The notes: a model not told the origin generated them from the letters alone. DNA of 64,000 nt from Gammaproteobacteria bacterium (GCA_018677555.1 JAHHOT010000072.1:4737-68736), one strand, 5' to 3'; positions 44,875-64,000 are shown, counted from the first letter of the stretch. A program made the numbers and translations.

Positions 44875-46143
44875 GTGCAAGAAAAACGAAAAGAACATGC
44901 CGTCGTTATCGGCCTTGACACGATGCAGGGCCTGCAGACCGCGAGGATTTTGGCCAGCCACGACATTCCGGTGATCGGTGTCGCCGCCAATTCGCGCCAT
45001 CATGCCTGCCGCACGCGTGTGTGCGAAAGAATCGTAGTCACCGACACGAGCGCCGGGACGTTGATTGGCGAACTGCTCGCGCTTGGCCAGTCGCTCGAGA
45101 GCAAGGCAGTCCTGTTCCCCTGCCACGATCATTGCGTTTCCCTGATTTCACGGCGGCGCGAGGAATTGCAGGATCTCTTCCACATCATGCTGGCCGACGC
45201 CGCAGTCGTCGACATGTTGGCGGACAAAATCAGTTTTTACAGGTTCGTAAAAAACCTCTCCGTCAAGGTCCCGCAGACGCATATTCTGCGCCAGCCCTCG
45301 GACGCACTCGATATCGCGCCCCGGCTCGAGTACCCCTGCGTCATCAAGCCCGTCATCCGCACTCCACAATGGAATTCGCAGACGATGTCGAAAGCATTCC
45401 ATGTTGCGGACGCGCGTGAATTTCTTGCCGTCTACGAAAAGGTGCACGGCTGGACCACGGAACTGATGGTGCAGCAGTGGATTGTCGGTGACGATTCGCA
45501 TCTCTACTCTTGCAACGTCTACTTTGATCGTGACTCCAAACCCGTAACGAGCTTCACCGCCCGCAAGCTGCGGCAGTGGCCACCCCGCGTAGGGTCGAGC
45601 TGCTTCGGTGAAGAAGTTCGTAACGACGAAGTACGCGATGCGAGCCTGCGTATATTCAGGCAGGCAGGATATGTCGGGCTCGGTTACATCGAGATGAAGC
45701 AGGACCAGCGCAGCGGTGTACACTACGCCATCGAAGCCAATGTCGGTCGGCCGACCGGGCGATCGGCAATTGCCGAGGCCGGGGGTGTCGACATGCTGCT
45801 GGCGATGTACTGCGATGCTACGGGTCGTCCCATGCCCGAAGGCCTCGAACAAACCTATGCCGGGGTCAAGTGGATCGATCTTCGCCACGATGTGCAATCG
45901 GCAGTTTTTTATATTCGCAACGGCGAATTGACGGTTGGCAACTGGCTGCGCTCACTTCGTGGCCGCAAGGCGTATGCGGTATTCTCGTGGAGAGACCCGC
46001 TGCCGTTCCTGGCCGACCTGTGGAACGCGGCCCGCATTGCGATGTCGCGGGAAGAACGCAAGCGCCGCAATCACTCCCGAGCGGTTAAATCACAAGCGGC
46101 AGCAGCCGCGTTGCCCAGTGTAAGTGAAGAAAAGAAACTATGA
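44875..46143 (+). CDS. ATP-grasp domain protein (COG3919-like carboxylate-amine ligase)
   Basis: N-terminal HAVVIGLDTMQGLQTARILASHDIPVIGV, YPCVIKP, ELMVQQWIVGDD and IEMKQD...YAIEANVGR blocks typical of predicted ATP-grasp enzymes. GTG start. Confidence 0.7.
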   Translation: MQEKRKEHAVVIGLDTMQGLQTARILASHDIPVIGVAANSRHHACRTRVCERIVVTDTSAGTLIGELLALGQSLESKAVLFPCHDHCVSLISRRREELQDLFHIMLADAAVVDMLADKISFYRFVKNLSVKVPQTHILRQPSDALDIAPRLEYPCVIKPVIRTPQWNSQTMSKAFHVADAREFLAVYEKVHGWTTELMVQQWIVGDDSHLYSCNVYFDRDSKPVTSFTARKLRQWPPRVGSSCFGEEVRNDEVRDASLRIFRQAGYVGLGYIEMKQDQRSGVHYAIEANVGRPTGRSAIAEAGGVDMLLAMYCDATGRPMPEGLEQTYAGVKWIDLRHDVQSAVFYIRNGELTVGNWLRSLRGRKAYAVFSWRDPLPFLADLWNAARIAMSREERKRRNHSRAVKSQAAAAALPSVSEEKKL

Positions 46144-47054
46144 GGATTCTCCTGCTCAGCCGCATTTTCGAAGACTCTATCCTGCGACTCGCCGCGGATC
46201 ACGATGTCATACGGGCGTACGACGCCTCGGCGGAGGAACATCTCGACTTGATCAAAGACCGCGATGCCCTCGTCTTTCGCAGCGGCGTCGACGTCACGCG
46301 CGACCTGATGTCGCGAGCACCGGATCTTCGATTGCTGATCCGCGCCGGATCCGGTCTGGACAACATCGATCTCGATTACGTTCGGGAGAAGGGGCTCGAG
46401 CTGGTTCGCGTCCCGGGGCCCGGTGCAAGGGCGGTGGCCGAGCTCGCATTCAGCTTCATGCTCGCGCTGGCCCGGCAGGTGCTGGTTGCCGACAGCTTGC
46501 TGCGGCAGGGACGCTGGGCCAAACACGAGCTGACCGGCTATCTGCTCGAGGGCAAGACGCTCGGCATATACGGGGCCGGCAATATCGGTTCCCTGGTCGG
46601 CCGCATGGGAGTCGCGTGGGGAATGAACGTGGTGGGTTGTGTGGAGAACCTGTCGGAAGAGCGGGAACAGCAGTTCCGTGAGCAGGGCATCGAACTCGCC
46701 GACGCCGACGACGTCGTGTCCCGCGCGGATTTCCTGAGCATCAACGTGCCCCTCAACGACAGCACGCGCAACCTCATCGGCAGCGAAGTCATCGGGCGCA
46801 TGAAGCCGGGCAGTTTCCTGGTTAACCTCGCCCGCGGCGGCATCGTCGACGAAGACGCGCTGCTCGACGCCCTCGTCAGCAAGCATCTCGCAGGCGCCGC
46901 ACTCGATGTTCATGCGCGCGAAGGCGAGAACGAGATATCCGCGCTCGCGACATTGTCCAACGTGATTCTTACGCCGCACATGGGCGCCATGACCGTCGAC
47001 TCGCAGCGCGCGGTTGGCGAAAGGGTAATCGAGATCGTGCAAAACCGTGCCTGA
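46140..47054 (+). CDS. D-isomer-specific 2-hydroxyacid dehydrogenase (PGDH-like)
   Basis: ATGA overlap with the ATP-grasp gene. NAD fold GKTLGIYGAGNIGSLVG. Catalytic blocks LARGGIVDEDAL and LTPHMGA. Confidence 0.85.
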   Translation: MRILLLSRIFEDSILRLAADHDVIRAYDASAEEHLDLIKDRDALVFRSGVDVTRDLMSRAPDLRLLIRAGSGLDNIDLDYVREKGLELVRVPGPGARAVAELAFSFMLALARQVLVADSLLRQGRWAKHELTGYLLEGKTLGIYGAGNIGSLVGRMGVAWGMNVVGCVENLSEEREQQFREQGIELADADDVVSRADFLSINVPLNDSTRNLIGSEVIGRMKPGSFLVNLARGGIVDEDALLDALVSKHLAGAALDVHAREGENEISALATLSNVILTPHMGAMTVDSQRAVGERVIEIVQNRA

Positions 47055-47103: not shown

Positions 47104-47850
47104 ATGAACAACACCGCGGCTCCTGCCCGACCCATGCCGGATAGCTCGAGAAAAAGAAAACTGTTTAAAGGCAAGAGCATCGCGGTTGTCGGTGCCGATG
47201 GCTCCGGCAAGTCCACGATGGCGCAAATGCTTGTCGAGAGCGCGCCGTCCGCAATGAAATATCTCTACATGGGCGCATCGATCGAGGCCAGCAGCATTGC
47301 ACTGCCCACCTCTCGCCTTCTCGTCCGGCTGAAAAGGCGCCGCCTCCAGGCCGATATCGACCCGAACGCACCATTGCCGCCCACCGACGAGATGTCCGAT
47401 GACATGAAATCACGCTTGCCTGGCGGCACGCTCGTGAAAGGCCTCGGTGTCATCAACCGAATCGCGGAGGAATGGTATCGCCAGCTATACCTGTGGGCCT
47501 ATAAAGCGCGGGGCTACATGGTCGTTTGCGACCGGCACTTCCTGTACGAGTACTTTCCGGACAGCGACAGCCTGCGCTCGCAGAGCCGGCGTCTCAGCGT
47601 GCGCCTGCATGACGGCATGCTAAGGCGTTTTTTCCCCCGGCCGGACCTGACGCTGCACCTGGATGCGCCGGCCGAGATTCTCTATGCCAGAAAACCCGAA
47701 TGGACCGTCGCGCATATCGAGCGACAACGAGCGGGCATAGTGGAGCAGGGTCGCGCCGATCGCCGCTTCGTCCGCATCGATGCAACGCAATCTATCGAAG
47801 ACGTCTTCCAGGACGTTTCCCGTCAGGTGGATGCGTTACGGCAAAACTGA
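47104..47850 (+). CDS. P-loop kinase-like protein (thymidylate/deoxynucleoside kinase fold)
   Basis: Walker A VVGADGSGKST and VVCDRHF (DRx) motif. The substrate cannot be inferred. Confidence 0.55.
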   Translation: MNNTAAPARPMPDSSRKRKLFKGKSIAVVGADGSGKSTMAQMLVESAPSAMKYLYMGASIEASSIALPTSRLLVRLKRRRLQADIDPNAPLPPTDEMSDDMKSRLPGGTLVKGLGVINRIAEEWYRQLYLWAYKARGYMVVCDRHFLYEYFPDSDSLRSQSRRLSVRLHDGMLRRFFPRPDLTLHLDAPAEILYARKPEWTVAHIERQRAGIVEQGRADRRFVRIDATQSIEDVFQDVSRQVDALRQN

Positions 47851-47896: not shown

Positions 47897-49141
47897 CTAG
47901 TTGGTCAGCCGGCCGTCAAGGAACCGCCGGTCGATGACATCCAGCACCCGCTTGCAGGACTGGCCGTCTGTATAGGTGTTGAATCGCCGGCGAATCGCTG
48001 ACCACTGCGCGTCGCGATCGTCGTCGATTGCGCTTCCGCTCGCGGCGTCGCGCAATGCACTGAGCATTTGCTTGCCGTCGTGACAAACCGGCCCGACGGC
48101 AATTTGCTGCGGGTCGAATATGAGTGAGCGGCTTGAGCTCGAAAAGTCCGCAAGATCCGGCATGTAGTAGACGATTGCCCGCTCCAGCAGCATGAAGTCG
48201 AAGATGATCGATGAATAATCACTGATCAGCGTGTTCGTCATGGCCATCAGCCGGTAGATGTCCGATCCCTGCTCCAGCTCGTGAACGTGATGACCCTTGC
48301 CGCAAAACGTGCTTTCGTCGTCCGGGTGAAACTTGAAGAAGAAGCTGCCGTTCACGCTGTCCATGAGCTCGTCGAGCTCAGCCCAGTCGACATCGAAATA
48401 CGCCGCGCCACTGTCGCGGTAGGTTGGCAGGTACATGAATACATGGCGACCACCATTCAATGCGTCCTGAAACGCCGGCGGCACGCTGGCGTCCACCGCC
48501 GAGCCGCTTCCGAACAGGACGTCGTTGCGCGGATAGCCGGTAACTACGCTGACGTCGGGCTCAAGGTCGAATGCACGGTCCGTAATTCGCGCGGTTTCCG
48601 GCGAGGTCGCGATAATCATGTGCGGTCGATGCACGTGCCACGGCATCATGACCGACAGCAGTGCACGCTCGGGCCAGGTGCCGTGGAAAAGCCGGTAATA
48701 GCGACTGTCCCGAGTTGCGATGTCTCGCTCGAATGCCTTGAGAGGGACACCGCTCCACAAGTTGATTCGCCTGGCGCCCCGGCAGGTCCAGAAATTGATG
48801 TCCTTGGAGAATGAATCGAAAAGATACAATCCGGCACGCAGGCAGCACCCGATGCCGCGTGGCGACCAGATCCAGTGTGCTTCCACACCCCGCGCCGAAA
48901 GCTGCTCAACAATGTGTTTTTCGCGAGAAATCCAGACCAGGCGAATTCGGTCGGACACCTTCTCCTGGCAATAGTTGAAGAATGCGGCGCTGTTGTCGGC
49001 GAAGCGGTAACCGCCCCAGGAGCCGAATACCCACAAATCGTCCCGCCGGGGTACGAAGCCGCTGACCAGGTAAATCGGGAATAAATACAGACGTGCCAGG
49101 AGGAGCAGGGCATAGCCGGTGAAGCGTCGCAATGTTTTCAT
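47897..49141 (-). CDS. CDP-glycerol glycerophosphotransferase family protein (TagB/TagF-like)
   Basis: N-terminal membrane-associated helix, then WVFGSWGGYRFADNSAAFFNY, YLPTYRD, FKFHP and LISDYSSIIFDFMLLERAIVYY blocks characteristic of the Glyphos_transf family. Confidence 0.8.
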   Translation of the reverse strand: MKTLRRFTGYALLLLARLYLFPIYLVSGFVPRRDDLWVFGSWGGYRFADNSAAFFNYCQEKVSDRIRLVWISREKHIVEQLSARGVEAHWIWSPRGIGCCLRAGLYLFDSFSKDINFWTCRGARRINLWSGVPLKAFERDIATRDSRYYRLFHGTWPERALLSVMMPWHVHRPHMIIATSPETARITDRAFDLEPDVSVVTGYPRNDVLFGSGSAVDASVPPAFQDALNGGRHVFMYLPTYRDSGAAYFDVDWAELDELMDSVNGSFFFKFHPDDESTFCGKGHHVHELEQGSDIYRLMAMTNTLISDYSSIIFDFMLLERAIVYYMPDLADFSSSSRSLIFDPQQIAVGPVCHDGKQMLSALRDAASGSAIDDDRDAQWSAIRRRFNTYTDGQSCKRVLDVIDRRFLDGRLTN

Positions 49142-49257: not shown

Positions 49258-50442
49258 GTGCAAAATTCGCCGGCCCGGAGCAACGTGGCCAACCCAGGTC
49301 TACTCCGCGTCGTGCATTTGTTTCGCACGCCCGTCGGCGGATTGTTCCGTCACGTTTGCGACCTGGCGGGGGAACAGAGCAGGCTGGGATACGATGTCGG
49401 CATCGTCTGCGATTCCTCTACCGGTGGCGCTCGCGCCGATGATGCTCTTGCGGCACTGGCGGCGTCATGCACCCTCGGCGTGCATCGCCTGCCCATACGG
49501 CGCCTGCCGGGCCCGTCGGACCTTCACACCGGGCGCGCGGTTAGCCGGATTCTCGCCCGATTGCGGCCGGATATCGTGCATGGCCACGGCGCGAAGGGCG
49601 CGGCGTTCGGTCGGCTGCTGGCGCGGCGAGTCGGCGCCAGGGCAATTTACACGCCACACGGCGGTTCGTTGCATTATTCCCGCTCGACGATCGCGGGATT
49701 GCTTTTTCTCGGCGCTGAGCGTTTGCTCCTGGCCCGAACTGACGGTGCGATCTTCGAGAGCAACTACACGGCGGGAGTGTTCGTTGAAAAGATCGGGCAA
49801 CTCCCCTGCCCGTCCAGCGTGATTCACAACGGTATTCGCGACGACGAGTTTCTTGACAACGACGTGGCGGCGGAATTCGACTTTGTATACGTCGGGGAGA
49901 TTCGTGAAATCAAGGGAATCCTGACGCTGATGGATGCGATCAGCCGCCTTGCGGATCGTGCTTCCTTCTCAGTTGCCATCGCAGGCGACGGCGAACTGAA
50001 GCCGGCTATCAAGCAGCGCATCGCAGCGGAGTCGCTCGACGCAACCGTGACGCTCATGCCGCCGGTCTATCCAGCGACGACCATCATTCGCAAGGCACGC
50101 TGCATTGTGGTTCCGTCGCTGGCCGAGTCGCTGCCCTATATCGTATTGGAGTCTGTAGCAGCGGGTGTGCCGGTCCTCGCAACGAACGTGGGTGGCGTTC
50201 CGGAGATTTTCGGTTCTTACAGCAGGAATCTGCTACCCGCCGGCGACAGTACCGCACTTGCCGATGCAATGCTTTCGAGGTTGCAAAACCCCGAATCGTA
50301 TGACGAAATAACCGCCGCCATGCGCGAACACACCCGACATAATTTCAAATTGAGCGACATGGTGCAGCAGACGCTGCAGTTCTACGACGAGGTATTATGC
50401 GGTAGCGGCAGCCGGGTAAGGCCCGCCGTCAATCGACGTTGA
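49258..50442 (+). CDS. glycosyltransferase family 4 (GT-B, Glycos_transf_1)
   Basis: LLRVVHLFRTPVGG N-terminal domain. C-terminal PSLAESLPYIVLESVAAGVPVLATNVGGVPEI (EX7E-type). GTG start. Confidence 0.85.
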   Translation: MQNSPARSNVANPGLLRVVHLFRTPVGGLFRHVCDLAGEQSRLGYDVGIVCDSSTGGARADDALAALAASCTLGVHRLPIRRLPGPSDLHTGRAVSRILARLRPDIVHGHGAKGAAFGRLLARRVGARAIYTPHGGSLHYSRSTIAGLLFLGAERLLLARTDGAIFESNYTAGVFVEKIGQLPCPSSVIHNGIRDDEFLDNDVAAEFDFVYVGEIREIKGILTLMDAISRLADRASFSVAIAGDGELKPAIKQRIAAESLDATVTLMPPVYPATTIIRKARCIVVPSLAESLPYIVLESVAAGVPVLATNVGGVPEIFGSYSRNLLPAGDSTALADAMLSRLQNPESYDEITAAMREHTRHNFKLSDMVQQTLQFYDEVLCGSGSRVRPAVNRR

Positions 50443-51487
50443 CCCGGCGAAAGCGGTTCGACAGCGCAAATGGCAGACCGCTCAGGAACAGCTTGACGTA
50501 CTTCAGGCGCTGGTAATCCCCGTTCAGCGAGACGCGCGGCAGCGCGTGCAGGTGATCGGCGTGCTCCGCGAAGACCACACCCTTGCGCGTTGTCACCGCG
50601 GTGGCAAAACCGAGGCGCGCGGCGACGTCGAACTCCCTGGGCCCGGCGGAAGCGGCGTCCCCGTATGGATACGCGGCATGCGCCGGCCGGACGCCGGCGT
50701 TCTTCTCGATATCATCGACATTCTGCTCGAATTCGCGCGACACGTCGGCTGCAGCGAGCTTGCTGAGGGCCCGGTGGCTTTCGGTATGAGCGCCAACGGT
50801 CAAAAGCCCGCTGTCATGCATTTCGCGCACCATGGCCCAGGTCAGCGGTCTGTTGTCTGTCGGCGAGCCCTGGTCGTGTTCCGGGTAGCGCTCGCGCAGC
50901 AGCTGCAGCGCGCCTTCCTGCTGCTCCAGGGGCGCCCGCCGTAGTGCCCAGTAAATCTCGTCGAATGCCTGCGCCTTCTGTGCCGTCGTGCCGGTCACCC
51001 GCTCGAATCGTTGCCCGCCAACGGTCATCTCGACGTGGTCCCGGTCCCGAATGGTGTTTTCCAGGTGCTGCCACCACAGGTGCAGGCGCCCGTGCATCAA
51101 CCCGCTACAGAGGTAAACCGTAAACGGCACCTTGTGTTTCCTGAAGATCGGCCAGGCATGCAGGTAGTTATCTGCGTAGCCATCGTCCAGCGTAAAGCTG
51201 ACGAAGCGCCGCCCGTTACCGCCGCGGACGAGGCGCCTACGGAACTCGTCCAGCGAAACGATGTCAATGTTCAGGTCACGTGCCAGTGCGATGACCGCGT
51301 CGAGGAATTCGGGCGAGATGTTCAGTATGCGATTGGGCGAGAAAGGAGCGTCCTGTTGCTGCGGCGTAACGTGATGCAGTGTCAGCAAAACGCCGCGACC
51401 ACTGAACCTTTTCCTGAACAGGTGGTACATACCGCTGTGGTACAGCCCGTTCAGGGCCAGCTTAAGGAGCGACGTTGTATGCGACAT
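50429..51487 (-). CDS. polysaccharide deacetylase family protein (CE4)
   Basis: FTLDDGYADNY (DD metal/catalytic motif) and GAHTESH block. The 3' end overlaps the convergent GT4 gene by 14 nt. Confidence 0.8.
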   Translation of the reverse strand: MSHTTSLLKLALNGLYHSGMYHLFRKRFSGRGVLLTLHHVTPQQQDAPFSPNRILNISPEFLDAVIALARDLNIDIVSLDEFRRRLVRGGNGRRFVSFTLDDGYADNYLHAWPIFRKHKVPFTVYLCSGLMHGRLHLWWQHLENTIRDRDHVEMTVGGQRFERVTGTTAQKAQAFDEIYWALRRAPLEQQEGALQLLRERYPEHDQGSPTDNRPLTWAMVREMHDSGLLTVGAHTESHRALSKLAAADVSREFEQNVDDIEKNAGVRPAHAAYPYGDAASAGPREFDVAARLGFATAVTTRKGVVFAEHADHLHALPRVSLNGDYQRLKYVKLFLSGLPFALSNRFRRVNVD

Positions 51488-51681: not shown

Positions 51682-53148
51682 ATGGTAGCAAACCTGGGCG
51701 AGTCAACCGGCCCACTCATTCAACGTCACAAGAATCACCGGATTCTTTCGGAAAGTATTACTGCAGGCCTCGTAATCCTGCTCGACGCCGTGACAATTCT
51801 CGTTGTTGGCTGGCTGATTTATGCGTTCTACCTGACTGCCGTTCCCGAACCGGATGCCTTCGTTCGCTACACCACGATACTGGTGATAGTTGCGTACCTG
51901 GTCGTGCAGTCGTTTTACCTGGCCGGCCTGTACAGCTTTGATGCCATCGTGACCCCGACACAACAGATCGGCAAAATCCTGTCCATATCCTCCGTCGTGT
52001 TCCTGGTCCTGGTGGCTGCGGGCTTCGCGCTCAAAATATCCGATGATTACTCCCGGGTGTGGGTGTTCAGCACGGCGATATCGGTAGTCGTGTTGCTGTG
52101 CGTGATGCGTGCAATTGTTGTAAGTATCATTCGCCGTCTCGCCAGGCGGGGCTACCTCGCACACAATATTCTCATCTACGGCGCCACGGAACAGGCGCAG
52201 CGTTTCATCGAGCAGCTGAACCAGATCAACGCACCCTGGAACCGAATCATCGGGATTTTCGACGACCGGCACTCAGCGCACAAAAACGTGATCGCCGGCG
52301 TAAACGTCGAGGGTGGGCTGCAGGAGCTTGTCGAGTGTGCGAGAAAAACACGCGCCGACGAAGTCGTCATTGCACTGCCGTGGGGCGATCAGCGGCGTGT
52401 CAGTGAAATCCTGCAGGTAATGAAGGTTCTGCCGACCAACATCCGGCTGAGTCCCGATCTCGCCAGCATGCGCATACTGAGCGGCACCATCAATTACCAG
52501 TATGGCGTGCCGCTTGCGTCAGTCTACGAAAAGCCGATATCCGGCTGGCAAAACGTCGAAAAACGCGCGTTCGATATCCTTGTCAGCTCGACCATGTTGC
52601 TGCTGTTGTCGCCGCTGATCGCCCTGCTGTGTGCCGGCGTCAAGCTGGACAGCCCTGGCCCGGTCTTTTTCCGCCAGCGCCGCTACGGATTCAACAACGA
52701 GTTAATCAAGATCTGGAAGCTTCGCACCATGTACGTCGACCAGCAGGACGAGAAGGCGGAGCGCCTTGCGACGCCGGACGACCCGCGCGTTACGAAATTC
52801 GGTTCATTTCTTCGCCGCTCGAGCCTCGACGAGTTGCCGCAACTTTTCAACGTGTTACATGGCGACATGTCGCTGGTCGGGCCGCGTCCGCACGCGCTGC
52901 AAGCCAAAGCGGCCGGACAGCTTTACCAGGATGCGGTTGGCGAGTACGCCGCCCGCCACCGGGTAAAACCCGGACTGACCGGCTGGGCCCAGGTCAACGG
53001 CTGGCGCGGAGAAACCGATACGCATGAGAAGATCGTCAAGCGTGTCGAGCACGATCTCTACTACATCGAGAACTGGTCGGTCGGGCTGGACATTCGCATC
53101 CTGTTGCGAACCGCCGTGGTGCTGTTCAAACAGGAAAACGCCTACTAG
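51682..53148 (+). CDS. undecaprenyl-phosphate sugar phosphotransferase (WbaP/WcaJ-type EPS priming enzyme)
   Basis: Four or five N-terminal TM segments, a central Rossmann-like domain, and a C-terminal Bac_transf domain (KRAFDILVSSTMLLLLSPL..., PGPVFFRQRRYG, LDELPQLFNVLHGDMSLVGPRP). Confidence 0.9.
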   Translation: MVANLGESTGPLIQRHKNHRILSESITAGLVILLDAVTILVVGWLIYAFYLTAVPEPDAFVRYTTILVIVAYLVVQSFYLAGLYSFDAIVTPTQQIGKILSISSVVFLVLVAAGFALKISDDYSRVWVFSTAISVVVLLCVMRAIVVSIIRRLARRGYLAHNILIYGATEQAQRFIEQLNQINAPWNRIIGIFDDRHSAHKNVIAGVNVEGGLQELVECARKTRADEVVIALPWGDQRRVSEILQVMKVLPTNIRLSPDLASMRILSGTINYQYGVPLASVYEKPISGWQNVEKRAFDILVSSTMLLLLSPLIALLCAGVKLDSPGPVFFRQRRYGFNNELIKIWKLRTMYVDQQDEKAERLATPDDPRVTKFGSFLRRSSLDELPQLFNVLHGDMSLVGPRPHALQAKAAGQLYQDAVGEYAARHRVKPGLTGWAQVNGWRGETDTHEKIVKRVEHDLYYIENWSVGLDIRILLRTAVVLFKQENAY

Positions 53149-53168: not shown

Positions 53169-55421
53169 CTAGCCCTCCTCGCTGTAATACTTCCTGAGCG
53201 CCCCGTGGTAAGCGCCGGAATCGCCGTAATGGTATTGCGCGTGCTTGCCGACATCGACCATGTTCAACAGGGTGCCCGACAGATGCCCGCGCGTCCGGCC
53301 CAGCTCCCGCAATGTATGCGCAACAACCGTTTTCGGCGTGCGCGACCAGCGGACGACCAGCATGGTCGTGTCGACCTTGCGGCTCAGCGCGCAGGCGTCG
53401 AGGCCTGCGATGATCGGCGGCGTGTCGATGACGACAAATTCGTACTCTCCCTCGGCAAAGCCGATGAGTTCATCCATCGTTCTGGAATCGAGCAACGGCA
53501 GCGGATCCTCGACCGGCTGGCCCGCGGTAATGAATTCGAGCCCGGTTTCCTGGTCGACGTTTATCGTTGGATGCTCACATTTTCCAGACAGGTAGTCCGT
53601 CAGGCCGACGCTATTCTCCGCATCGAGCACGTCGTGGATCGAAGGATTGCGGGTGTCGGCGTCGATCAGCAGCGTTCGGTGGCCGGAAACCGCGCGGGCC
53701 CGCGCGAGCCCGAGTGCGATAGTCGATTTGCCTTCGCCGGGGTGCGAGGAAGTGACGACGACTGTCGTGGGACCTGCGGGCACAGCGATGGTCAGGCTCC
53801 AATAGGCGGTTCGCAATGCCTGCGCGAACGCGGATCGTGGCTGTTCGAGCATGTAGGTGGCGGGCTCGATCTTGCGCAGGCCTTTCGTGCCCAGCAAGGG
53901 AACGAAGCCGAGCGACGTCATGCCGGTCTCCTGCTCGATCTGCTCGCCGCTCACGAAGCCGCGCTGCAAGGACTCCATGATGAAAACCGCGATGATCGCA
54001 AGCAAGGCAGACAGCGGAATGACGATGCCGAGCATGAACGCCTTGTTCGGGAAAGACGGTTGCGACGGCGCATCCGCACGCGAGATGATCCGCGCCCCGG
54101 CTTGCTGTGGCTGCATTTCGTCCTGCGAACTGATCTCCCGGAAGCGCGCCAGCAGGGTCGCAAGCAAAGCGCGACTGGCCTCCGCCTCGCGCTCCAGCGC
54201 CCGCAACTGGATCTCCTTGTCGTTCGACCGTGCCATGACATTCTTCAGCCGGGCCAGCTCGCTCTGCAGCGATTCTTCGCGCGCCGCAGCGATCGCCACT
54301 TCGTTCGACAGGTTCCTGACGACCTTGTTGACCTCGCTATCGATGCGCTGGGCAAGATCCTGTGCCTCGGCCTGCAGCTGGATCATGCGAGGATGCGACG
54401 GGCCGTATTCCGCGGATAATTCAGCAACCCGTCGTTCGACCTCGGTTTGCTGTTCCTTCAGACGCTGAATCAACGCTGAGTCAAGTACCTCGCTGGCGGA
54501 TGCAACGCCGTCCTCCGAGCTGATCAGGCTGGATAGCTGCCGCAGGCGCGCACGCGCCTCGGCCTCCGCAGCTCTCGCCAGCACCAGCTGCCCATTCAAC
54601 TCCGCAATCTGCTGAGCGGTGAGCGTGCCACCCTCGGTTTGTAACAGCTCCGCGGTCTCGCGAAAGTCCTCGACCGCCTGTTCCGACGCGGCCACCTGTT
54701 CGCGTAGGTCACTTACGCGCTCGTTCAGCCAGTCGTTGGCCACTTTCGTCGCTTCGTACTTGGTTTCCAGCTGCGACAACAGATACTGATCCGCAACGGC
54801 ATTCGAAATTGCCGCCGCTTTTTCCGCGTCGACCGAGGTAATGACGACCGACAGGACCCGCGAGTCTTTCACGGCTTCGACGTCCAGCTTGTTGAGGAAC
54901 GAATCGACGATGGCAGAGCGACTGGCCGTTCCGTCACCGATATCGCGCCCGAAAAGGGCGAGCGTTTTTGCAACAAGCCCCGGCGGGCGCAGGCCACTGT
55001 TGAACTCCGGATCTCCGTCCAGGCCCAGCTTGTCGACTACTGCCGCGGCAAGGCCACGCGACTGCAGCACTTCGACCTGGCTGCGCACGCCCTGGTCATC
55101 GGCCGTGCGGCCCGCAAGCACGGAATCCACTGTGGGAATCGTGACCTGCTGGGGTTCCAGCAATATGAGCGTTTCCGCGTCGTAACGAGGGGTCACGAAC
55201 TGCAACGAGACGCTTACCAGCACAACGCTGGCGAATACGACGCCGAGGACGAACCATTTGCGCCGGAACAGGATATTGAGCAAATCGCCCAGACCGGCAT
55301 CGCTTTCATGCACGTGGTAGGTTGGCGGCGGGCCCGGAGGCTCCGCCTGACTGGCGGCGATTCTGGCCGGCTGCCGGCGCCCGTTCGCGGAAATATGTGG
55401 TTTGGGTCGTCGCGCAACCAT
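53169..55421 (-). CDS. wzc: polysaccharide co-polymerase / tyrosine autokinase (Wzc/GumC-like, PCP-2a)
   Basis: Wzz-type N-terminal domain with a long periplasmic coiled coil. Walker A SSHPGEGKST, A' LLIDADTRNPS, B VVIDTPP. Tyr-rich tail HAQYHYGDSGAYHGALRKYYSEEG. Confidence 0.9.
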   Translation of the reverse strand: MVARRPKPHISANGRRQPARIAASQAEPPGPPPTYHVHESDAGLGDLLNILFRRKWFVLGVVFASVVLVSVSLQFVTPRYDAETLILLEPQQVTIPTVDSVLAGRTADDQGVRSQVEVLQSRGLAAAVVDKLGLDGDPEFNSGLRPPGLVAKTLALFGRDIGDGTASRSAIVDSFLNKLDVEAVKDSRVLSVVITSVDAEKAAAISNAVADQYLLSQLETKYEATKVANDWLNERVSDLREQVAASEQAVEDFRETAELLQTEGGTLTAQQIAELNGQLVLARAAEAEARARLRQLSSLISSEDGVASASEVLDSALIQRLKEQQTEVERRVAELSAEYGPSHPRMIQLQAEAQDLAQRIDSEVNKVVRNLSNEVAIAAAREESLQSELARLKNVMARSNDKEIQLRALEREAEASRALLATLLARFREISSQDEMQPQQAGARIISRADAPSQPSFPNKAFMLGIVIPLSALLAIIAVFIMESLQRGFVSGEQIEQETGMTSLGFVPLLGTKGLRKIEPATYMLEQPRSAFAQALRTAYWSLTIAVPAGPTTVVVTSSHPGEGKSTIALGLARARAVSGHRTLLIDADTRNPSIHDVLDAENSVGLTDYLSGKCEHPTINVDQETGLEFITAGQPVEDPLPLLDSRTMDELIGFAEGEYEFVVIDTPPIIAGLDACALSRKVDTTMLVVRWSRTPKTVVAHTLRELGRTRGHLSGTLLNMVDVGKHAQYHYGDSGAYHGALRKYYSEEG

Positions 55422-57268: not shown

Positions 57269-58543
57269 CTAGCCCGACTGATTTCTCAGGCCTGAACCGC
57301 CCTGATAGCGCAAATTTTTCAACATAACGGCCGAACCGTGCGCAAGCGTCGCCCGGTCGACGGCGATTGTGAGGCCCCAGATCATCGCCAGCAACAACCA
57401 CAGATGTCGCCAGTGTGTGCTGTCGATAAACAAACTCTGGAACAACGTACCCAAGAGAACGGCCAGGACCACGTGGAGATCGCTCTGCAACGGCCAGCGC
57501 ATTCCGATACGGCCGATTGCCCGGTACAGCGCCTGCACAAGGAACAGCCCGAACGCCACAGCGCCCAGCCAGCCACCTTCGAGTGCGGCGTGCAGAAACA
57601 GGTTGTGGGGCTCCATGCCGATTTCCGGCGTCGACATGCCCGGGCCGATGCCCAGCGGCCGGCTGCCGACTTCTTCCAGCGCCATCGCCTGCGTGTGGAA
57701 GCGCCCGCCTGTTTCGATGTCGTACTGCTTGAAGATTTTCGCCCTGTCGAAGAACCGCTGGCCCGCCGCCGTGTTGTTGACTGCCCAGGTCAGCGTGGCG
57801 CCGGAGACAAGTGTAACGATGCCGACAATAATCGTAAGGCGGATCTTTTCCCTGAGCGACGGCGTTGTAGCGATGCTCAGTAACATGTAACTGGCCAGGG
57901 CAATGCCGAAATTGAGCCAGGCGCCGCGCGAGAACGACAGCAAAATGCCGAAGGCAATAACGAGGAACTTCGCCGCCTCGATGAAAAACTGCGTGTGGCG
58001 CGCCTTGAGCATGCGGGACAACAAGTAGATAGCGATGGGGATGAGAAAGGGGCCGAACACGTTCGGGTCCTTGAAGGGCCCCTTCGCACGGCCGAACGCA
58101 TCGCCGACAATAAACGCGGGCATCAGGTCGTAGTATTCGAGACAACCCCAGACAGCCGCGAATAGTGCTGCAACGGTGTAGCCGCTCCAGATTATGCGCA
58201 TATTCTTTTCTGTCGCGCTGACAATGATCGAAACGAAGAGAAGCCAGCTGAGTGCCATGTAGATGCGTGTAACCAGCGGACGAACCGTGACATCAGGCTC
58301 GCCGGAAACGAGCGCGCCAACGAGGTTTCCGGCGGTAAACAGCGCCAGCAATAACGCGGGCACGGCAATCTCGCCGGGCACCCGGAGCCGGTAGGAATAC
58401 AGCAGCACGAACAGCAGGATCAGCATAAAATCGTACGGCGCCGGTTCGATGAATACGATGCAACTGATAGCCATCGTGAACCACAGGAGTGGCTCCGACC
58501 ATTTCAGCGTGTCGCTGTCTGCTTGGGGATTTTCGTACTTCAC
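57269..58543 (-). CDS. O-antigen ligase/polymerase family membrane protein (Wzy-like)
   Basis: About 10-12 TM segments with a large loop. Wzy_C-like region (FSRGAWLNFGIALASYML ... HNLFLHAALEGGWLGAVAF). Confidence 0.75.
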   Translation of the reverse strand: MKYENPQADSDTLKWSEPLLWFTMAISCIVFIEPAPYDFMLILLFVLLYSYRLRVPGEIAVPALLLALFTAGNLVGALVSGEPDVTVRPLVTRIYMALSWLLFVSIIVSATEKNMRIIWSGYTVAALFAAVWGCLEYYDLMPAFIVGDAFGRAKGPFKDPNVFGPFLIPIAIYLLSRMLKARHTQFFIEAAKFLVIAFGILLSFSRGAWLNFGIALASYMLLSIATTPSLREKIRLTIIVGIVTLVSGATLTWAVNNTAAGQRFFDRAKIFKQYDIETGGRFHTQAMALEEVGSRPLGIGPGMSTPEIGMEPHNLFLHAALEGGWLGAVAFGLFLVQALYRAIGRIGMRWPLQSDLHVVLAVLLGTLFQSLFIDSTHWRHLWLLLAMIWGLTIAVDRATLAHGSAVMLKNLRYQGGSGLRNQSG

Positions 58544-58649
58544 TGTTTTTGTTCTTGTTGGTACGGGTTTTGTGCTCGAACGTTCAATCTTACGACGCCA
58601 TGCATTGCCTGTGCGGCGAATGTTCCCACGTTATGTAAACAACAAGAAC

Positions 58650-58689
58650 GCAACGCATAATTTCAAGCGTTGCCAGTTTTATTTTTCTT
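58650..58689 (+). terminator. terminator/attenuator-like hairpin inside the AT-rich wzy-pepM intergenic region
   Basis: GCAACGC-ataatttcaa-GCGTTGC (7-bp stem) followed by cagTTTTATTTTTCTT. The minus-strand side is also T-rich (GTTCTTGTTGTTT). The function is unclear because the flanking genes are divergent. Confidence 0.3.
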
Positions 58690-58965
58690 GTGGTCAAATT
58701 CCATCGGCTGCGGAGTCAGGCGAAAATTTGCGTTATGTATCAAGAAGTATCAGTGCTTGCGCGAAGTGTGATCAGCAGCTAATAATGTAATAAGACGGTA
58801 ACAAAAAAACTGTTCGCCGTAACGAACTAAAACAGTTACCCAGGAAATTCTCGAAGCACGGTTTGCCAGCGCCGCAAGGCATCGCACATCCGAATATCAC
58901 GTGTTGCCAGGTCTAATTCATGTGCATTCGAGAATACTAATAACGCTTTTCCTCAGGGACCCGCA

Positions 58966-60654
58966 GTGTCAGAAAAATTACAGGCAACCAATCCTCTCGC
59001 TTTCACCGTGCGACATGATCGTCGTGCAACCGATAAAAAAACCGTCAAGTTTCGCAATCTGCTGCAATCCGATCAGCTTGAATTCATTTGTGAGGCACAC
59101 AACGGGCTGAGTGCAAAAATCTGCGAGGAGGCCGGCTTCAAAGGAATCTGGGCCAGCGGTCTCTGCCTGTCGGCCCAGTTCGGCGTGCGCGATTCGAACG
59201 AGGCAAGCTGGACCCAGCTCATGGAAATGCTCGAGTTCATGAGTGACGCAACCAGCATTCCGATCATGCTCGACGGCGATACCGGTTACGGTAACTTCAA
59301 CAACATGCGCCGGCTCGTCACCAAGCTGGAGCAACGCGACATCGCTGCGGTATGCATCGAAGACAAACTTTTCCCGAAAACCAACAGTTTTATCCACTCG
59401 AGAGAACATCCGCTCGCCGATATCGATGAGTTCTGCGGCAAGATCAAGGCGGCAAAGGACGCGCAGAAATGCGATTCCTTCTCGGTCGTTGCGCGCATTG
59501 AATCATTGATTGCCGGCTGGGGAATGGATGAAGCGCTGCGTCGTGCCGAGGCCTACCATGCAGCGGGCGCGGATGCGATCCTGATTCACAGCGCCAAGTC
59601 GAAGGCCGACGAAGTACTGTCGTTCAAGAAAGAATGGGGCGATCGCGGGCCGGTGGTCATCGTGCCGACCAAGTACTATTCCACGCCGACCGACGTGTTC
59701 CGGGAGCACCGCTTTTCAATGGTTATCTGGGCCAACCACATCCTGCGGTCGGCTGTGTCCGCCATGCAATCGACCGCCAGGCGGATACAGGAAGAGGAAT
59801 GCCTGCATTCGATCGAAGACAGCATTGCGTCGGTTGGCGAGGTATTCCGGCTGCAGGGCGCGCAGGAACTGCAGGCTGCCGAGGCGCGCTATCTGCCGGT
59901 CAGTGCGCAGAAGACCCGCGCGATCGTACTCGCCGCGGCGCGCGGATCGGACATGGGGGAGCTCACGGCTGACCGTCCGAAAGCAATGATTACTGTCCGC
60001 AACAAGAGCCTGCTTTCGCATATCGTGGATGCCTACAACGCCGCGGGAATTTCTCAGCTGAACGTAGTACGCGGATACTGCAAGGACGCGGTCGACCTGC
60101 CCAATATCAATCTCGTCGACAATGACGATTACGCGGATACCGGTGAATTGTATTCGCTACACCTGGCGCTTAATGCCGTTACTGGCAAAGGCGACACTGT
60201 CATATCCTACGGCGACGTTCTGTTTCGAAAATATATTCTGGACGCCGTGCTGGAAGCCGACGACGACTTCGTTATCGCTGTCGATGCTGCCTGGCGTGAG
60301 ACCGCGAACCGGGACCGCAGTGCGGACTATGTCGCCTGTTCGATGCCGAACACGCGCAACGCGTTCTACCGCAGCGTGACGCTGGAAAAAATGGACAATG
60401 ACATCGAATCGCCCCATATCCACGGCGAATGGATGGGTATTCTGAAGGTATCCGAAGCGGCCTACGAACGATTTACAGCCATAGTTCGCGAAATCGTTCA
60501 CTCGCCGCAAGCGCCAGGGCGCGCTGCCGACATGCCGCACCTATGCAATGAATTGATTCGTCGTGGCCATTCAATCCGTGTAATCTACTCGACTGGAAAC
60601 TGGCTGGACGTTGATACCGTTGAAGATGTCGTCGCATCAAGCAGCTTTCAGTGA
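58966..60654 (+). CDS. aepX: phosphoenolpyruvate mutase fused to a C-terminal nucleotidyltransferase (PntC-like cytidylyltransferase) domain
   Basis: GTG start with AGGGA upstream. PepM pattern: [75 protein letters not shown]. From about aa 320, [34 protein letters not shown]... is an NTP-transferase fold. Confidence 0.9.
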
Positions 60655-60686
60655 CAGGCAATCGCGGCTGAACGGCCGAATCCCCG

Positions 60687-61820
60687 ATGATTGAGGCGGG
60701 CAGCTTCCTTGCCGCAGCCCGAAGCCGCGGCTTCGAGCTGATTTCCGGCGTGCCCTGCTCGTACCTGACACCTTTCATCAACCGCGTCATCGACGACGAT
60801 GCTGTACGCTACGTGGCTGCGGCCAACGAGGGCGATGCTGTTGCCATCGCCGCGGGATCAGAGCTGGGTGGTGTCCCGGCAATCGCGATGTTTCAGAACT
60901 CCGGCCTCGGCAACGCTGTGAGTCCGCTCACCTCGTTAACTCACGTGTTCAAGCTTCCGGTGTTGCTGATCGTAACGCTGCGCGGTGAGCCTGGCGGCCC
61001 ACCGGACGAGCCGCAGCATTCGCTCATGGGTGCGATCACGCTCGAAATTCTGCAATCGATGAAGATTCCCTGGGAGTATTTCCCGGACGACGAGGATCAG
61101 GTCGAGGCCGTACTGGACAAGGCGCTGGCAGCCATGAAAGAGACGCAGCGGCCATTCGCACTTGCCATGCGCAAAGGCACTGTAAAACCTTCGCCCATCC
61201 GTACACGTTTGCAGCAGAAAGATGTAGGCGCGCAGACATGCACCAACAAGGAGGCCACGCACCGGCGGCGCGACATGCTGCTGGCGATACAACAGGCGAG
61301 CCTGGCACCGGATATCGTCATCGCGACAACAGGCTATACAGGGCGCGAGCTTTTTGCCTGCGAGGACCGGGAGAACCAGCTTTACATGGTCGGCTCGATG
61401 GGCTGCGCGCCAAGCCTCGGGCTGGGTCTCGCGCTGTGTCGGCCGGAGCGCAACGTGACTGTCATTGACGGGGACGGCGCCGCGATGATGCGCATGGGTT
61501 CGATGACCACCATCGGCTACGAACGCCCGACAAACCTGGTCCACATACTGCTCGATAATCATGTGCACGAGTCAACCGGTGCACAATCGACAGTCTCCCG
61601 GTCGATCGACTTCTGTGCAATCGCGGCAGCTTGCGGCTACCCGGCTGTATACCGCGTCAACGATCCGCAGGAGCTTACAGACCTGCTGAAAAGAAAAGAT
61701 CCGCAACTGAAGTTTATCCACGTTCCGATACTGCCGGGCATACCGGAAAATCTTGGACGGCCCGCAAGCACGCCAGCCGAGGTTGCCTCCCGGCTTCGAA
61801 AATTCATGGACAGGAAATAA
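60687..61820 (+). CDS. aepY: phosphonopyruvate decarboxylase (ThDP-dependent)
   Basis: N-terminus FLAAARSRGFELISGVPCSYLTPFIN. ThDP-binding GDGAAMMRMGSMTT...LDNHVHESTG. Confidence 0.9.
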   Translation: MIEAGSFLAAARSRGFELISGVPCSYLTPFINRVIDDDAVRYVAAANEGDAVAIAAGSELGGVPAIAMFQNSGLGNAVSPLTSLTHVFKLPVLLIVTLRGEPGGPPDEPQHSLMGAITLEILQSMKIPWEYFPDDEDQVEAVLDKALAAMKETQRPFALAMRKGTVKPSPIRTRLQQKDVGAQTCTNKEATHRRRDMLLAIQQASLAPDIVIATTGYTGRELFACEDRENQLYMVGSMGCAPSLGLGLALCRPERNVTVIDGDGAAMMRMGSMTTIGYERPTNLVHILLDNHVHESTGAQSTVSRSIDFCAIAAACGYPAVYRVNDPQELTDLLKRKDPQLKFIHVPILPGIPENLGRPASTPAEVASRLRKFMDRK

Positions 61821-62914
61821 TGAGCAAGAAATGGATACTGTTGAACCCGGGCCCGGTGACACTGACCGAGTCAGTGCGTGCGGCCCTTACCCGGGATGAC
61901 TGGTGTCACCGCGAAACGGAATTCGCCAGTCTCACGCAGTCGATAAACGAGCGTATTGCCGGCGTCTACGAGGAATCGTCTGCAAACTATGCATCCGTGC
62001 TACTGACGGGATCGGGAACGCTCGCCGTCGAGTCCATGCTCACCACGTTCGCCCCCCGGGACAGCAAAACCCTGGTCGTCACAAACGGCGTTTATGGCGA
62101 GCGCATGGAGGCGATGCTACGCGCAAAGGGCCGGCCCGTCGTTACCGTCAACTCCGCGTGGGAGGCGCCGATGGACCTGGAGAGCGTCGAAGCCGTATTG
62201 CGGGCGGACCAGGAGGTCAGTCACGTTCTTGCCGTTCATCACGAAACGACGACGGCCCGCCTGAACGACCTGGACGGTCTAGGCAAACTCTGCCGCGACT
62301 ATGACCGGGCGCTGTTGCTGGATGCTGTCAGCAGCTTTGGCGCCGAACGGATCAGTTTCGACGACTGGAACCTTGCCGCACTGGCCGCGACGGCCAACAA
62401 GTGCATTCATGGCGTTCCGGGGCTGTCGTTCGTCCTCGCGCGCCGTGATCTCTACGCTGAGCCGGACCCGACTTGCGGCAGCGTTTACCTGGATGCCAAC
62501 CGCTACTTCAGAACCCAGCACGGCGACGGCTACTCGCCGTTTACCTTGTCGGTACAGGTCGCGTTCGCGCTCGATACCGCGCTCGACGAACTCGCAGCCG
62601 GCGGCGGCTGGAAGGCGCGCGGGGCGCGTTATGCGGCTGTCGGCAAACGTGTGCGTGATGAGCTGGCGAGGCTTGGCATCGAACCATTTATCCCGGCGGA
62701 CGACTTTTCAGCGGTCATGGCGAGTTATCGATTGCCGGAAGGTATTGCCTACGAGCAGATGCACGACGACCTGAAAGCGCGTGGATTCATAGTATATGCC
62801 GGCCAGGGCCACTTTTCCTCGAGCATGTTCCGTATAGCCCACATGGGCGCGATCGCCGATGCCGATGTCGACCGGCTACTCGCTGCGCTGCGCGAATTTT
62901 TCGCCGACAACTGA
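61820..62914 (+). CDS. aepZ: 2-aminoethylphosphonate:pyruvate aminotransferase (class V)
   Basis: ORF 61631..62914. I prefer ATG 61820 (MSKKWILLNPGPVTLTESVRAAL), which overlaps the ppd stop (TAATG). The PLP-Lys context is ATANKCIHGVPG. Confidence 0.9.
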   Translation: MSKKWILLNPGPVTLTESVRAALTRDDWCHRETEFASLTQSINERIAGVYEESSANYASVLLTGSGTLAVESMLTTFAPRDSKTLVVTNGVYGERMEAMLRAKGRPVVTVNSAWEAPMDLESVEAVLRADQEVSHVLAVHHETTTARLNDLDGLGKLCRDYDRALLLDAVSSFGAERISFDDWNLAALAATANKCIHGVPGLSFVLARRDLYAEPDPTCGSVYLDANRYFRTQHGDGYSPFTLSVQVAFALDTALDELAAGGGWKARGARYAAVGKRVRDELARLGIEPFIPADDFSAVMASYRLPEGIAYEQMHDDLKARGFIVYAGQGHFSSSMFRIAHMGAIADADVDRLLAALREFFADN

Positions 62915-62917
62915 CCG

Positions 62918-63673
62918 ATGCGCGCCGTCACAACTGCGGTTATCCTCGCCGCCGGCATGGGCACGCGGCTCAAAGCGGAAAACCACGACCGGCCGAAAGG
63001 CTTTCTCAAGCTTGGCGAAAAGCCCATCGTGGAAGAATCGATTTCGAGACTACAGGAGGCCGGGATAAACAGCATCCTGATTGCGACCGGCCATTGTCAT
63101 GACTATTACGATGCGCTTGCCCGGGAATCCGGCGGCAGCATCCAGACCGCCTACAATGCCAGCTATCGCGACTCCGGTAGCATGTACTCGCTCTATTGCG
63201 CCAGGGAGCTGGTACAGGACGACTTCCTGTTGCTGGAATCGGACCTGATATATGAGCAGCGGGCACTCACCAGCCTGATGCACCAGCCACAATCCGATTG
63301 CGTACTGCTGTCTGACGCGACCAATTCCGGCGACGAAGTATTTGTCGAAACCCGCGACGATTTACTGGTCGCAATGTCGAAGGACAGATCGCAGCTCGGC
63401 AGCATCGCCGGGGAACTCGTCGGCATAACACGAGTGTCGAAGCGGCTGTTCGAAATAATGATCGATATAGCCGAGGCTGCGTTTCGCTCAACCTTGCACT
63501 ACGATTACGAGACTGACTGCCTGGTCGCCGCAGCAAAGCAACATCCGGTACATTGCCATCTTGAAGGCGACCTGGCCTGGGGTGAAATCGACGACGCATC
63601 GCATCTCGCAAGGGCCCGCTCGAGCGTTTACCCGCAGATCCTTGCTCGCGACGCTTCGTTGCTGCGTCAATGA
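62918..63673 (+). CDS. stand-alone nucleotidyltransferase (LicC/NTP_transferase-like)
   Basis: N-terminal AVILAAGMGTRLKAENHDRPKGFLKLGEKPIV (G-x-G-T-R-L signature). The start is 3 nt after the aminotransferase stop. The stop overlaps the next gene's start (ATGA). Confidence 0.8.
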   Translation: MRAVTTAVILAAGMGTRLKAENHDRPKGFLKLGEKPIVEESISRLQEAGINSILIATGHCHDYYDALARESGGSIQTAYNASYRDSGSMYSLYCARELVQDDFLLLESDLIYEQRALTSLMHQPQSDCVLLSDATNSGDEVFVETRDDLLVAMSKDRSQLGSIAGELVGITRVSKRLFEIMIDIAEAAFRSTLHYDYETDCLVAAAKQHPVHCHLEGDLAWGEIDDASHLARARSSVYPQILARDASLLRQ

Positions 63674-64000
63674 CTGAAAAAATTCCACAGGGCTTCTCCG
63701 CGCTGGCGCGGGGATCAGCATTCGTGTTTGCCTGCCGCGTAACCGGCGCCGCGTTTGCGCTGCTGCTGCAGGTGCTGCTCGCCCGCTGGCTCGGTGCCGA
63801 TGGAATGGGCATTTACGTCCTTGCGTTTTCATGGAGCATACTGCTCGCAACCGTCAGCCACCTCGGATTGGCTACCGCTTCCGTAAGAGTCATTGGCCGG
63901 GCCATCGAGGAAGACCAGCCAGGAGTCATTCACGGCTACCTGCGCCGTACGCGCCAGCTCGTCCCCGGTGCAGGCATGCTGATGGCGGTCATTGGTTCGA
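63670..64000 (+). CDS. polysaccharide flippase-like membrane protein (Wzx/MOP family), N-terminal fragment cut by window edge
   Basis: My own translation from ATG 63670: MTEKIPQGFSALARGSAFVFACRVTGAAFALLLQVLLARWLGADGMGIYVLAFSWSILLATVSHLGLATASVRVI... It is stop-free to nt 64000. The pattern is typical of the N-terminus of oligosaccharide flippases. Confidence 0.6.
   Translation, partial: MTEKIPQGFSALARGSAFVFACRVTGAAFALLLQVLLARWLGADGMGIYVLAFSWSILLATVSHLGLATASVRVIGRAIEEDQPGVIHGYLRRTRQLVPGAGMLMAVIGS

Follow-up and report, generated by a model that had tools for sequence, protein, structure and literature searches.

A putative 2-aminoethylphosphonate tailoring operon in a Wzx/Wzy-dependent exopolysaccharide locus, with a TagF-like protein as candidate transferase

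Cell-surface glycans and lipids are thought to take up about half of the bacterial capacity for phosphonate biosynthesis, and polymers that carry phosphonate withstand phosphatases and contribute to the phosphorus redox cycle in the environment. How a phosphonate would be handed on to such a polymer is the question raised by a 64,000-nucleotide (nt) stretch of DNA from a Gammaproteobacteria bacterium (GCA_018677555.1, JAHHOT010000072.1:4737-68736; the whole stretch is called the window below), in which genes for making and activating 2-aminoethylphosphonate (AEP) lie within an exopolysaccharide (EPS) locus. The steps beyond cytidine monophosphate-activated AEP (CMP-AEP) have been called enigmatic (Rice 2019, PMC6697681). 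We consider it likely that these genes form an operon for AEP phosphonyl tailoring, wired into a Wzx/Wzy-dependent EPS locus that includes a TagF-like transfer step. An earlier, sequence-only reading of the window had predicted a phosphonate-decorated polysaccharide; the gene families, the translational coupling of pntC to wzx and the synteny in other phyla support this idea, and the phosphonoglycan itself is still a prediction. The core operon comprises the following features (aa, amino acids; NT, nucleotidyltransferase; PEP, phosphoenolpyruvate).

58966-60654, + strand: gene for a fusion of PEP mutase (PepM) and an NT domain, 562 aa, GTG start
about 59050-59865 (aa 29-300), + strand: PepM domain of the fusion, TIGR02320
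59881-60651 (aa 306-562), + strand: LicC/PntC-fold NT domain of the fusion, with a match to PF12804 (NTP_transf_3) at aa 319-440
60687-61820, + strand: phosphonopyruvate decarboxylase (Ppd), 377 aa, TIGR03297
61820-62914, + strand: biosynthetic AEP aminotransferase (AEPT) of the AepZ type, 364 aa from ATG, TIGR03301
62918-63673, + strand: free-standing PntC-type AEP cytidylyltransferase, 251 aa, matched by NTP_transf_3/NTP_transferase and PDB 6PD1/6PD2

All three predicted AEP enzymes exceed the equivalog cut-offs of their NCBIfam models. The PepM domain scores 384.9 bits with TIGR02320 (cut-off 319.55) and Ppd 419.2 bits with TIGR03297 (cut-off 312.5), and the aminotransferase reaches 371.9 bits with the biosynthetic PhnW-AepZ model TIGR03301 (cut-off 360.8). 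These curated models leave no doubt about the assignment of the three predicted enzymes, and the route from PepM via Ppd and the aminotransferase to 2-AEP stands as originally proposed. The EDKxxxxxNS-type motif, which had been named as a point to check, is present at aa 132-141 of PepM, the thiamine pyrophosphate motif GDG...N is found at aa 262 of Ppd, and the aminotransferase contains the ANKC lysine motif. A catabolic PhnW/PhnX reading was rejected on the grounds that the aminotransferase passes TIGR03301 and fails the catabolic PhnW model TIGR02326 (273 bits, cut-off 400.8), and that PepM and Ppd are present.

Open reading frames (ORFs) and family models agree on the four packed genes described before, and direct reading of the sequence reproduces their four junctions exactly. 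A 32-nt gap (60655-60686) separates the stop of the PepM fusion (60654) from the start of ppd (60687), the ppd stop and the aminotransferase start form a TAATG overlap (61818-61822), a 3-nt gap (62915-62917) lies between the aminotransferase stop at 62914 and the next ATG at 62918, and the stop of pntC overlaps the start of wzx as ATGA (63670-63673). The aminotransferase start is taken as the ATG at 61820; a longer ORF starting with TTG at 61631 would overlap Ppd.

The presence of two NTs raises the question of which one would activate AEP. The PntC domain of Treponema denticola Tde1415 has been solved and assayed, and its residues Glu104 and Glu196 touch the AEP amine (Rice et al. 2019, PMC6697681). 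The free NT aligns with this domain (PDB 6PD1/6PD2) with an E value of 2.2e-49, residues 5-244 onto 3-241, and its E107 and E198 correspond to E104 and E196 of the T. denticola protein. It also carries G13, G15, R17 and K27 of the P-loop motif GxGTR...PK, and R17, K27 and E198 are invariant among 17 homologues. Because of the full-length homology to the T. denticola enzyme and the retention of both glutamates, the free NT (62918-63673) is classified as PntC, and it would make CMP-AEP from cytidine triphosphate (CTP) and AEP. The fused NT domain, which shares 27% identity with the free NT, matches the T. denticola PntC structure with an E value of only 3e-4; by sequence, it is closest to LicC (8e-11). 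In its predicted model (pLDDT 87.5), Foldseek gives LicC 1JYK (TMq 0.72) and PntC 6PD2 (TMq 0.77) as the best matches, and hhalign of its profile against the PntC profile returns a probability of 99.3%. The P-loop of the fused domain reads AARGSDM, with D329 at the position of the canonical Arg (R17 of PntC). Throughout its family this position is Asp or Glu, preceded at a distance of three residues by an invariant Arg, R326 (AAxRGxE/D). According to the profile-profile alignment, E107 of PntC is replaced by an invariant Tyr (Y415) and E198 by Met (M523), both family-wide. Since the canonical P-loop Arg and both AEP-amine glutamates are absent, the fused domain is not classified as PntC; it is a conserved paralogue with the LicC/PntC fold. 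It resembles a cytidylyltransferase for small phosphates or phosphonates and probably acts on a substrate other than AEP. Hence, the cytidylyltransferase expected by the sequence-only reading is found in the free NT and not in the C-domain of the fusion, which had been named as the target for a CTP plus AEP assay and is the wrong protein for it, the close PntC homologue being the free NT.

The fused NT domain is strongly conserved (79 homologues; 39-sequence alignment). Degeneration of the domain was ruled out by this conservation, together with the Mg-binding SYGD motif and the invariant relocated Arg. A literature search outside subscription journals returned no report on the function of NT domains fused to PEP mutase (Ppm). 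Most Nitrospira loci (L011, L014, L016 and others) contain the PepM-NT fusion alone, with no homologue of Ppd, AEPT or PntC within 10 kb, and in three Nitrospira genomes (G461-G463) no full-length Ppd passes the cut-off; all they have is a remote pair of split alpha/beta decarboxylase subunits similar to sulfopyruvate decarboxylase. Judging from these loci, the fused NT may work without the AEP branch. The Nitrospira contexts, in which the fusion is mostly solitary, give no hint of its partner.

An enzyme that could transfer the activated phosphonate is encoded upstream of the core operon.

47897-49141, - strand: TagF-like transferase of the Ser subfamily, 414 aa, PF04464 with 180 bits, profile positions 6-365 of 367

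This is the single PF04464 gene in the genome, which is 82% complete, and it is located in the EPS locus. No match in that genome was found to LicD or to the TagD-type glycerol-3-phosphate/CDP-glycerol synthase model (TIGR01518), although other NT families could supply such a donor. Residues 37-403 of the TagF-like protein align with the GT-B catalytic domain of TagF. His584 of TagF, the leaving-group His, is kept as His272, and His444, described as the invariant nucleophile-activating base (PMC10901376), is replaced by Ser130 (NLWSGVPLK). Among 120 homologues (identity at least 49%), 116 have Ser here. The genomic context could be read for ten Ser-type genes (homologues at 50-60% identity or more), and in eight of the ten PepM lies within 10 kb (the window, L004, L064, L084, L085, L086, L089 and L092); in L086 and L089, the TagF-like gene is located immediately 3' of pntC. 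The context in L091 is cut by the contig end. Two distant homologues (34-36% identity) from Gemmatimonadota genomes that lack PepM keep the His (NLWHGVPLK), a small His-type sample, and the association between Ser and PepM is correlative. Based on gene context, the Ser-type TagF-like enzyme is the best candidate for a CMP-AEP:glycan transferase. No publication linking a TagF-like enzyme to AEP transfer was found outside subscription journals. A hydrophobic segment with basic residues on both sides is present at aa 8-28 of the protein. A metagenome-assembled genome (MAG) of the Chromatiaceae has no TagF-like gene at its locus; there, the genes pepM-NT/ppd/aept/pntC are followed by a gene for a 557-aa membrane protein of the Sulfatase family, similar to EptA/LtaS (L012:14638-16311). 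This protein suggests an alternative attachment route.

The polymer that would receive the phosphonate is predicted from the genes around the operon.

63670-64000 and 986 nt more past the window end, + strand: Wzx-type flippase, 438 aa, PF01943 with 32.6 bits on the full protein (L002:407-1723)
L002:1741-2808, outside the window: FemAB/GNAT-like gene after wzx
58544-58965, 422 nt: divergent intergenic region between wzy (- strand) and pepM (+ strand), presumed promoter region
57269-58543, - strand: Wzy_C-family polymerase/ligase, PF04932 with 47.2 bits
55960-57222, - strand: BBP2_2 outer-membrane beta-barrel, PF10082 with 316.7 bits
55421-55957, - strand: short Wza-like export protein, 178 aa, PF02563 and SLBB; nearest NCBIfam model TIGR03027, below cut-off
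53169-55421, - strand: Wzc-type chain-length regulator/tyrosine autokinase with Wzz, GNVR and P-loop domains, TIGR01007 with 120.1 bits (cut-off 108)
51682-53148, + strand: WcaJ-type undecaprenyl-phosphate glucose phosphotransferase (priming enzyme), TIGR03023 with 492.7 bits (cut-off 410.75)
50429-51487, - strand: polysaccharide deacetylase
49258-50442, + strand: GT4 glycosyltransferase

The components of a Wzx/Wzy-dependent locus are thus all found here: a priming enzyme, Wzx, Wzy, the PCP-2a protein Wzc and the OPX protein Wza in a short, 178-aa form. Domain matches bear out the embedding in an EPS locus with Wza, Wzc, Wzy and priming genes, as well as the Wzx-like flippase as fifth gene of the operon, which according to the contig continuation ends after the FemAB/GNAT-like gene. 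The divergent wzy/pepM layout recurs in locus L085. A scan of 58400-59100 revealed no consensus-like sigma-70 site, and a terminator scan of the same region returned one terminator-like hairpin, which corresponds to the chance level. Gemmatimonadota loci, L089 and L091 likewise encode the GT4 glycosyltransferase and the deacetylase, each about 50% identical to the proteins here. The region 41709-43974 encodes a 514-aa protein with no Pfam or NCBIfam match and, on the opposite strand, a 246-aa protein that is present beside the methyltransferase in L086 and L091 (48-52% identity); the EPS locus may end on its left side with these two genes.

Four further genes lie between this edge and the TagF-like gene.

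43926-44711, - strand: methyltransferase
44875-46143, + strand: ATP-grasp ligase
46140-47054, + strand: D-2-hydroxyacid dehydrogenase similar to phosphoglycerate dehydrogenase (PGDH)
47104-47850, + strand: dTMP-kinase-like P-loop protein

In L003, L064, L084-L086, L089, L091 and L092, companion genes with 46-72% identity are found together with PepM and the TagF-like gene, and the set of methyltransferase, ATP-grasp ligase and dehydrogenase spans Gemmatimonadota, Planctomycetota, Gammaproteobacteria and unassigned metagenome contigs. The nearest named relatives of the accessory genes are found in a Gammaproteobacteria MAG. The dehydrogenase is nearest to phosphoglycerate dehydrogenases, and in relatives its gene often adjoins pepM divergently. 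The dTMP-kinase-like gene is co-transcribed with the genes for the ATP-grasp ligase and the dehydrogenase and is found at 53-55% identity in L085 and L091. A thymidylate kinase also flanks Ppm in another cluster family (Li and Horsman 2022, PMC8942020), and CMP recycling is a possible role for the protein encoded here.

Taken together, we propose the following pathway. Going by equivalog-level family membership, the PepM domain would convert PEP to phosphonopyruvate, Ppd would decarboxylate this product to phosphonoacetaldehyde, drawing the mutase reaction forward against its unfavourable equilibrium, and the AepZ-type aminotransferase would yield 2-AEP. The free NT, a homologue of a crystallised and assayed enzyme, would then form CMP-AEP from CTP and AEP. 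On the evidence of gene context, the TagF-like enzyme may take CMP-AEP as donor and attach its AEP-phosphonyl group to a sugar hydroxyl in an undecaprenyl diphosphate-linked repeat unit, which would be begun by the WcaJ-type enzyme and lengthened by GT4. The decorated unit is predicted to be flipped by Wzx and polymerised by Wzy, and Wzc, Wza and the BBP2_2 barrel would export the polymer. The fused NT would be a separate LicC/PntC-fold paralogue, probably for a non-AEP substrate. Further tailoring of the phosphonate or the acceptor is probably carried out by the dehydrogenase, the ATP-grasp ligase and the methyltransferase.

Several observations weigh against this proposal. The TagF-like protein lacks the "invariant" catalytic base of its family, so that its activity is uncertain, and its gene is located 10 kb from pepM on the opposite strand. 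A 619-aa Ser-type variant (51% identity; L090:10001-11860) has no PepM nearby, and on one Gemmatimonadales chromosome a trio of TagF-like, Wzx and methyltransferase genes lies 1.7 Mb from the PepM cluster. The proposal gives no role to the NT domain fused to PepM, and in two relatives (Planctomycetota, metagenome; L084:18370-21233 and L092:1-544) a gene for a CDP-alcohol phosphatidyltransferase (CDP-OH_P_transf) is found beside the cluster. The cluster around the 619-aa variant is an unrelated one of an aryl-polyene/lipid-like kind, with ApeP/ApeI-like genes, ketoacyl synthases, LolA_3 and Lip_A_acyltrans, and L084 additionally has a Sulfatase-family gene.

Other readings of the locus differ in the enzyme or the product that they assign. 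The TagF-like protein could be an ordinary polyol-phosphate transferase that builds a teichoic-acid-like decoration, with one of the NTs, for example the fused one, supplying CDP-glycerol or CDP-ribitol and another enzyme attaching AEP. Its membership of PF04464, with TarF as the nearest NCBIfam model, the retained equivalent of the leaving-group His584 and a fused NT that has no assigned substrate fit this view, which we nevertheless regard as unlikely, given that no TagD homologue was found in the 82% complete genome, and given the replacement of the invariant base His by Ser specifically in the PepM-associated clade, and the position of genes of this clade directly after pntC in L086 and L089. 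Alternatively, the product could be a phosphonolipid, CMP-AEP being moved to diacylglycerol or ceramide and not to a glycan. Large known groups of clusters with PepM-NT and PntC are of the lipid type (Li and Horsman 2022), and the neighbours of the clusters in L084 and L092 point the same way, so that some cluster members may make or pass through a phosphonolipid. For the locus in the window this product seems very unlikely, since the 84-kb contig encodes no CDP-alcohol phosphatidyltransferase (the three copies in the genome lie elsewhere), the translation of pntC is coupled to that of wzx, and EPS genes surround the operon. It could also be argued from the fusion to PepM, which hints at a role in the pathway, and from the LicC/PntC-like fold that it is the fused C-domain which acts as cytidylyltransferase on AEP, the free NT activating another compound, for instance a sugar-1-phosphate. 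We consider this highly improbable: the free NT is much closer to the T. denticola PntC, and the changes of Arg17 to Asp, Glu107 to Tyr and Glu198 to Met in the fused domain are conserved family-wide.

A further idea extends the proposed pathway and does not exclude it: the attached group may be something other than plain AEP, either because AEP is N-methylated or N-acylated by the methyltransferase and by the ATP-grasp ligase in cooperation with the dehydrogenase, or because the PGDH-like dehydrogenase opens a second phosphonate branch by reducing phosphonopyruvate to phosphonolactate in a VlpB-like step, the product of which is activated by the fused NT. In valinophos biosynthesis, the reduction of phosphonopyruvate has been proposed to be catalysed by VlpB, an enzyme of the 2-Hacid_dh_C family. 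Across phyla, PepM is accompanied by the dehydrogenase, the ATP-grasp ligase and the methyltransferase. The gene for the dehydrogenase often lies divergently beside pepM and its product is closest to phosphoglycerate dehydrogenases, VlpB belonging to 2-Hacid_dh_C too, and the fused NT is devoid of both amine-binding Glu residues. However, the dehydrogenase is likened to VlpB by family and context and not by direct alignment, Ppd and a phosphonopyruvate reductase would compete for phosphonopyruvate, and the dehydrogenase is missing from most Nitrospira fusions. We regard a modified phosphonate as a tentative option. From the gene context, a second branch leading to phosphonolactate, or the N-acylation or N-methylation of AEP, could give the fused NT a substrate. 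A broader hypothesis, which we put forward as doubtful, is that the Ser-for-His subfamily of TagF-like proteins constitutes the CMP-phosphonate:glycan phosphonyl transferase of Gram-negative bacteria, and that a conserved set of eight genes (PepM-NT, Ppd, AEPT, PntC, Ser-type TagF-like, PGDH-like dehydrogenase, ATP-grasp ligase and methyltransferase) installs two different or further-tailored phosphonates, with the fused NT activating a non-amine phosphonate such as phosphonolactate formed by the dehydrogenase.

Returning to the AEP tailoring operon itself, its relatives are spread widely and thinly. Full-length homologues of PepM-NT (59-65% identity) are found in Gemmatimonadota, Spirochaetes, Nitrospira and Gammaproteobacteria, and the gene order pepM-NT/ppd/aept/pntC is kept in Gemmatimonadota, Spirochaetes and Gammaproteobacteria. 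A PntC homologue was found in none of 36 genomes from the bacterium's own family and in one of 24 genomes from the same order, and 400 genomes from the same phylum yielded no close homologue of the TagF-like protein. The GC content falls to 0.547 at 58001-60000, compared with about 0.60-0.62 in most of the window. Because of the patchy distribution of homologues, the absence from genomes of the same family and the local dip in GC content, the sporadic distribution of the cluster is probably due to horizontal transfer.

For the attachment step, the locus offers a clear transferase candidate, marked by a single diagnostic change from His to Ser that tracks PepM across phyla, and it shows that the NT fused to PepM is more than an extra copy of PntC. 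The annotation of metagenomes would also benefit if the EPS loci that make phosphonate polymers were known. The part worth following is the conserved Ser-type TagF-like transferase together with the tailoring set.

The combination of a Ppm-NT fusion and a separate PntC beside glycan genes has already been described (Rice 2019; Li and Horsman 2022). PF12804 is fused to 33% of Ppm enzymes, and in some clusters the fused NT is accompanied by another one close by (Rice et al. 2019, PMC6697681). For instance, the Pnt clusters of T. denticola, Atopobium rimae and Olsenella uli (PMC6697681) share with this locus the Ppm-PF12804 NT fusion, Ppd, AEPT, a separate PntC and surface-glycan neighbours, and the alignment between the free NT and the Tde1415 PntC domain is full-length, the AEP-contact glutamates being kept. 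In contrast to the known Pnt clusters, PntC and AEPT are separate proteins in this locus, the host is Gram-negative with a Wzx/Wzy/Wzc/Wza locus, and a TagF-like enzyme stands in the place of the LicD-like transferase. Polysaccharide B of Bacteroides fragilis is given as an AEP phosphonoglycan (Li and Horsman 2022, PMC8942020). As in the window, its AEP genes, aepXYZ, lie inside a capsular/EPS repeat-unit locus, and the fit of the aminotransferase to the PhnW-AepZ biosynthetic model is a further likeness; the companion tailoring genes differ, in a comparison based on the literature and not on alignment. The 'Burkholderiales_CDP-OH' phosphonolipid group (Li and Horsman 2022) shares the AEP core and a pair of PntC-like NTs, of which one is part of a Ppm fusion. 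That group has phospholipid-synthesis genes and a 2-oxoglutarate oxygenase, whereas here EPS genes are found and no CDP-alcohol transferase is present on the contig.

With TagF, TarF and TarL (PF04464; PDB 3L7I-M, 8VA1), the TagF-like protein has the GT-B domain in common, and the leaving-group His (H584 of TagF, H433 of TarL) corresponds to H272. However, the activating His (H444 of TagF, H300 of TarL) is replaced by Ser130 here and by Ser across the PepM-associated subfamily, and the presumed donor is a CMP-phosphonate in place of a CDP-polyol; like TarF, the protein has a single domain. The VlpB branch of valinophos biosynthesis also combines a 2-Hacid_dh_C/PGDH-like dehydrogenase beside pepM with an ATP-grasp ligase, whereas here the dehydrogenase, likened to VlpB by family and context, is encoded in a glycan locus that also contains Ppd and AEPT. 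It is true that few phosphonate-decorated polymers have been characterised, as stated in the sequence-only reading, but the architecture itself had been described and is less novel than was implied. What goes beyond the known systems is the gene set conserved across phyla, namely the genes predicted to encode the Ser-type TagF-like protein, the PGDH-like dehydrogenase, the ATP-grasp ligase and the methyltransferase.

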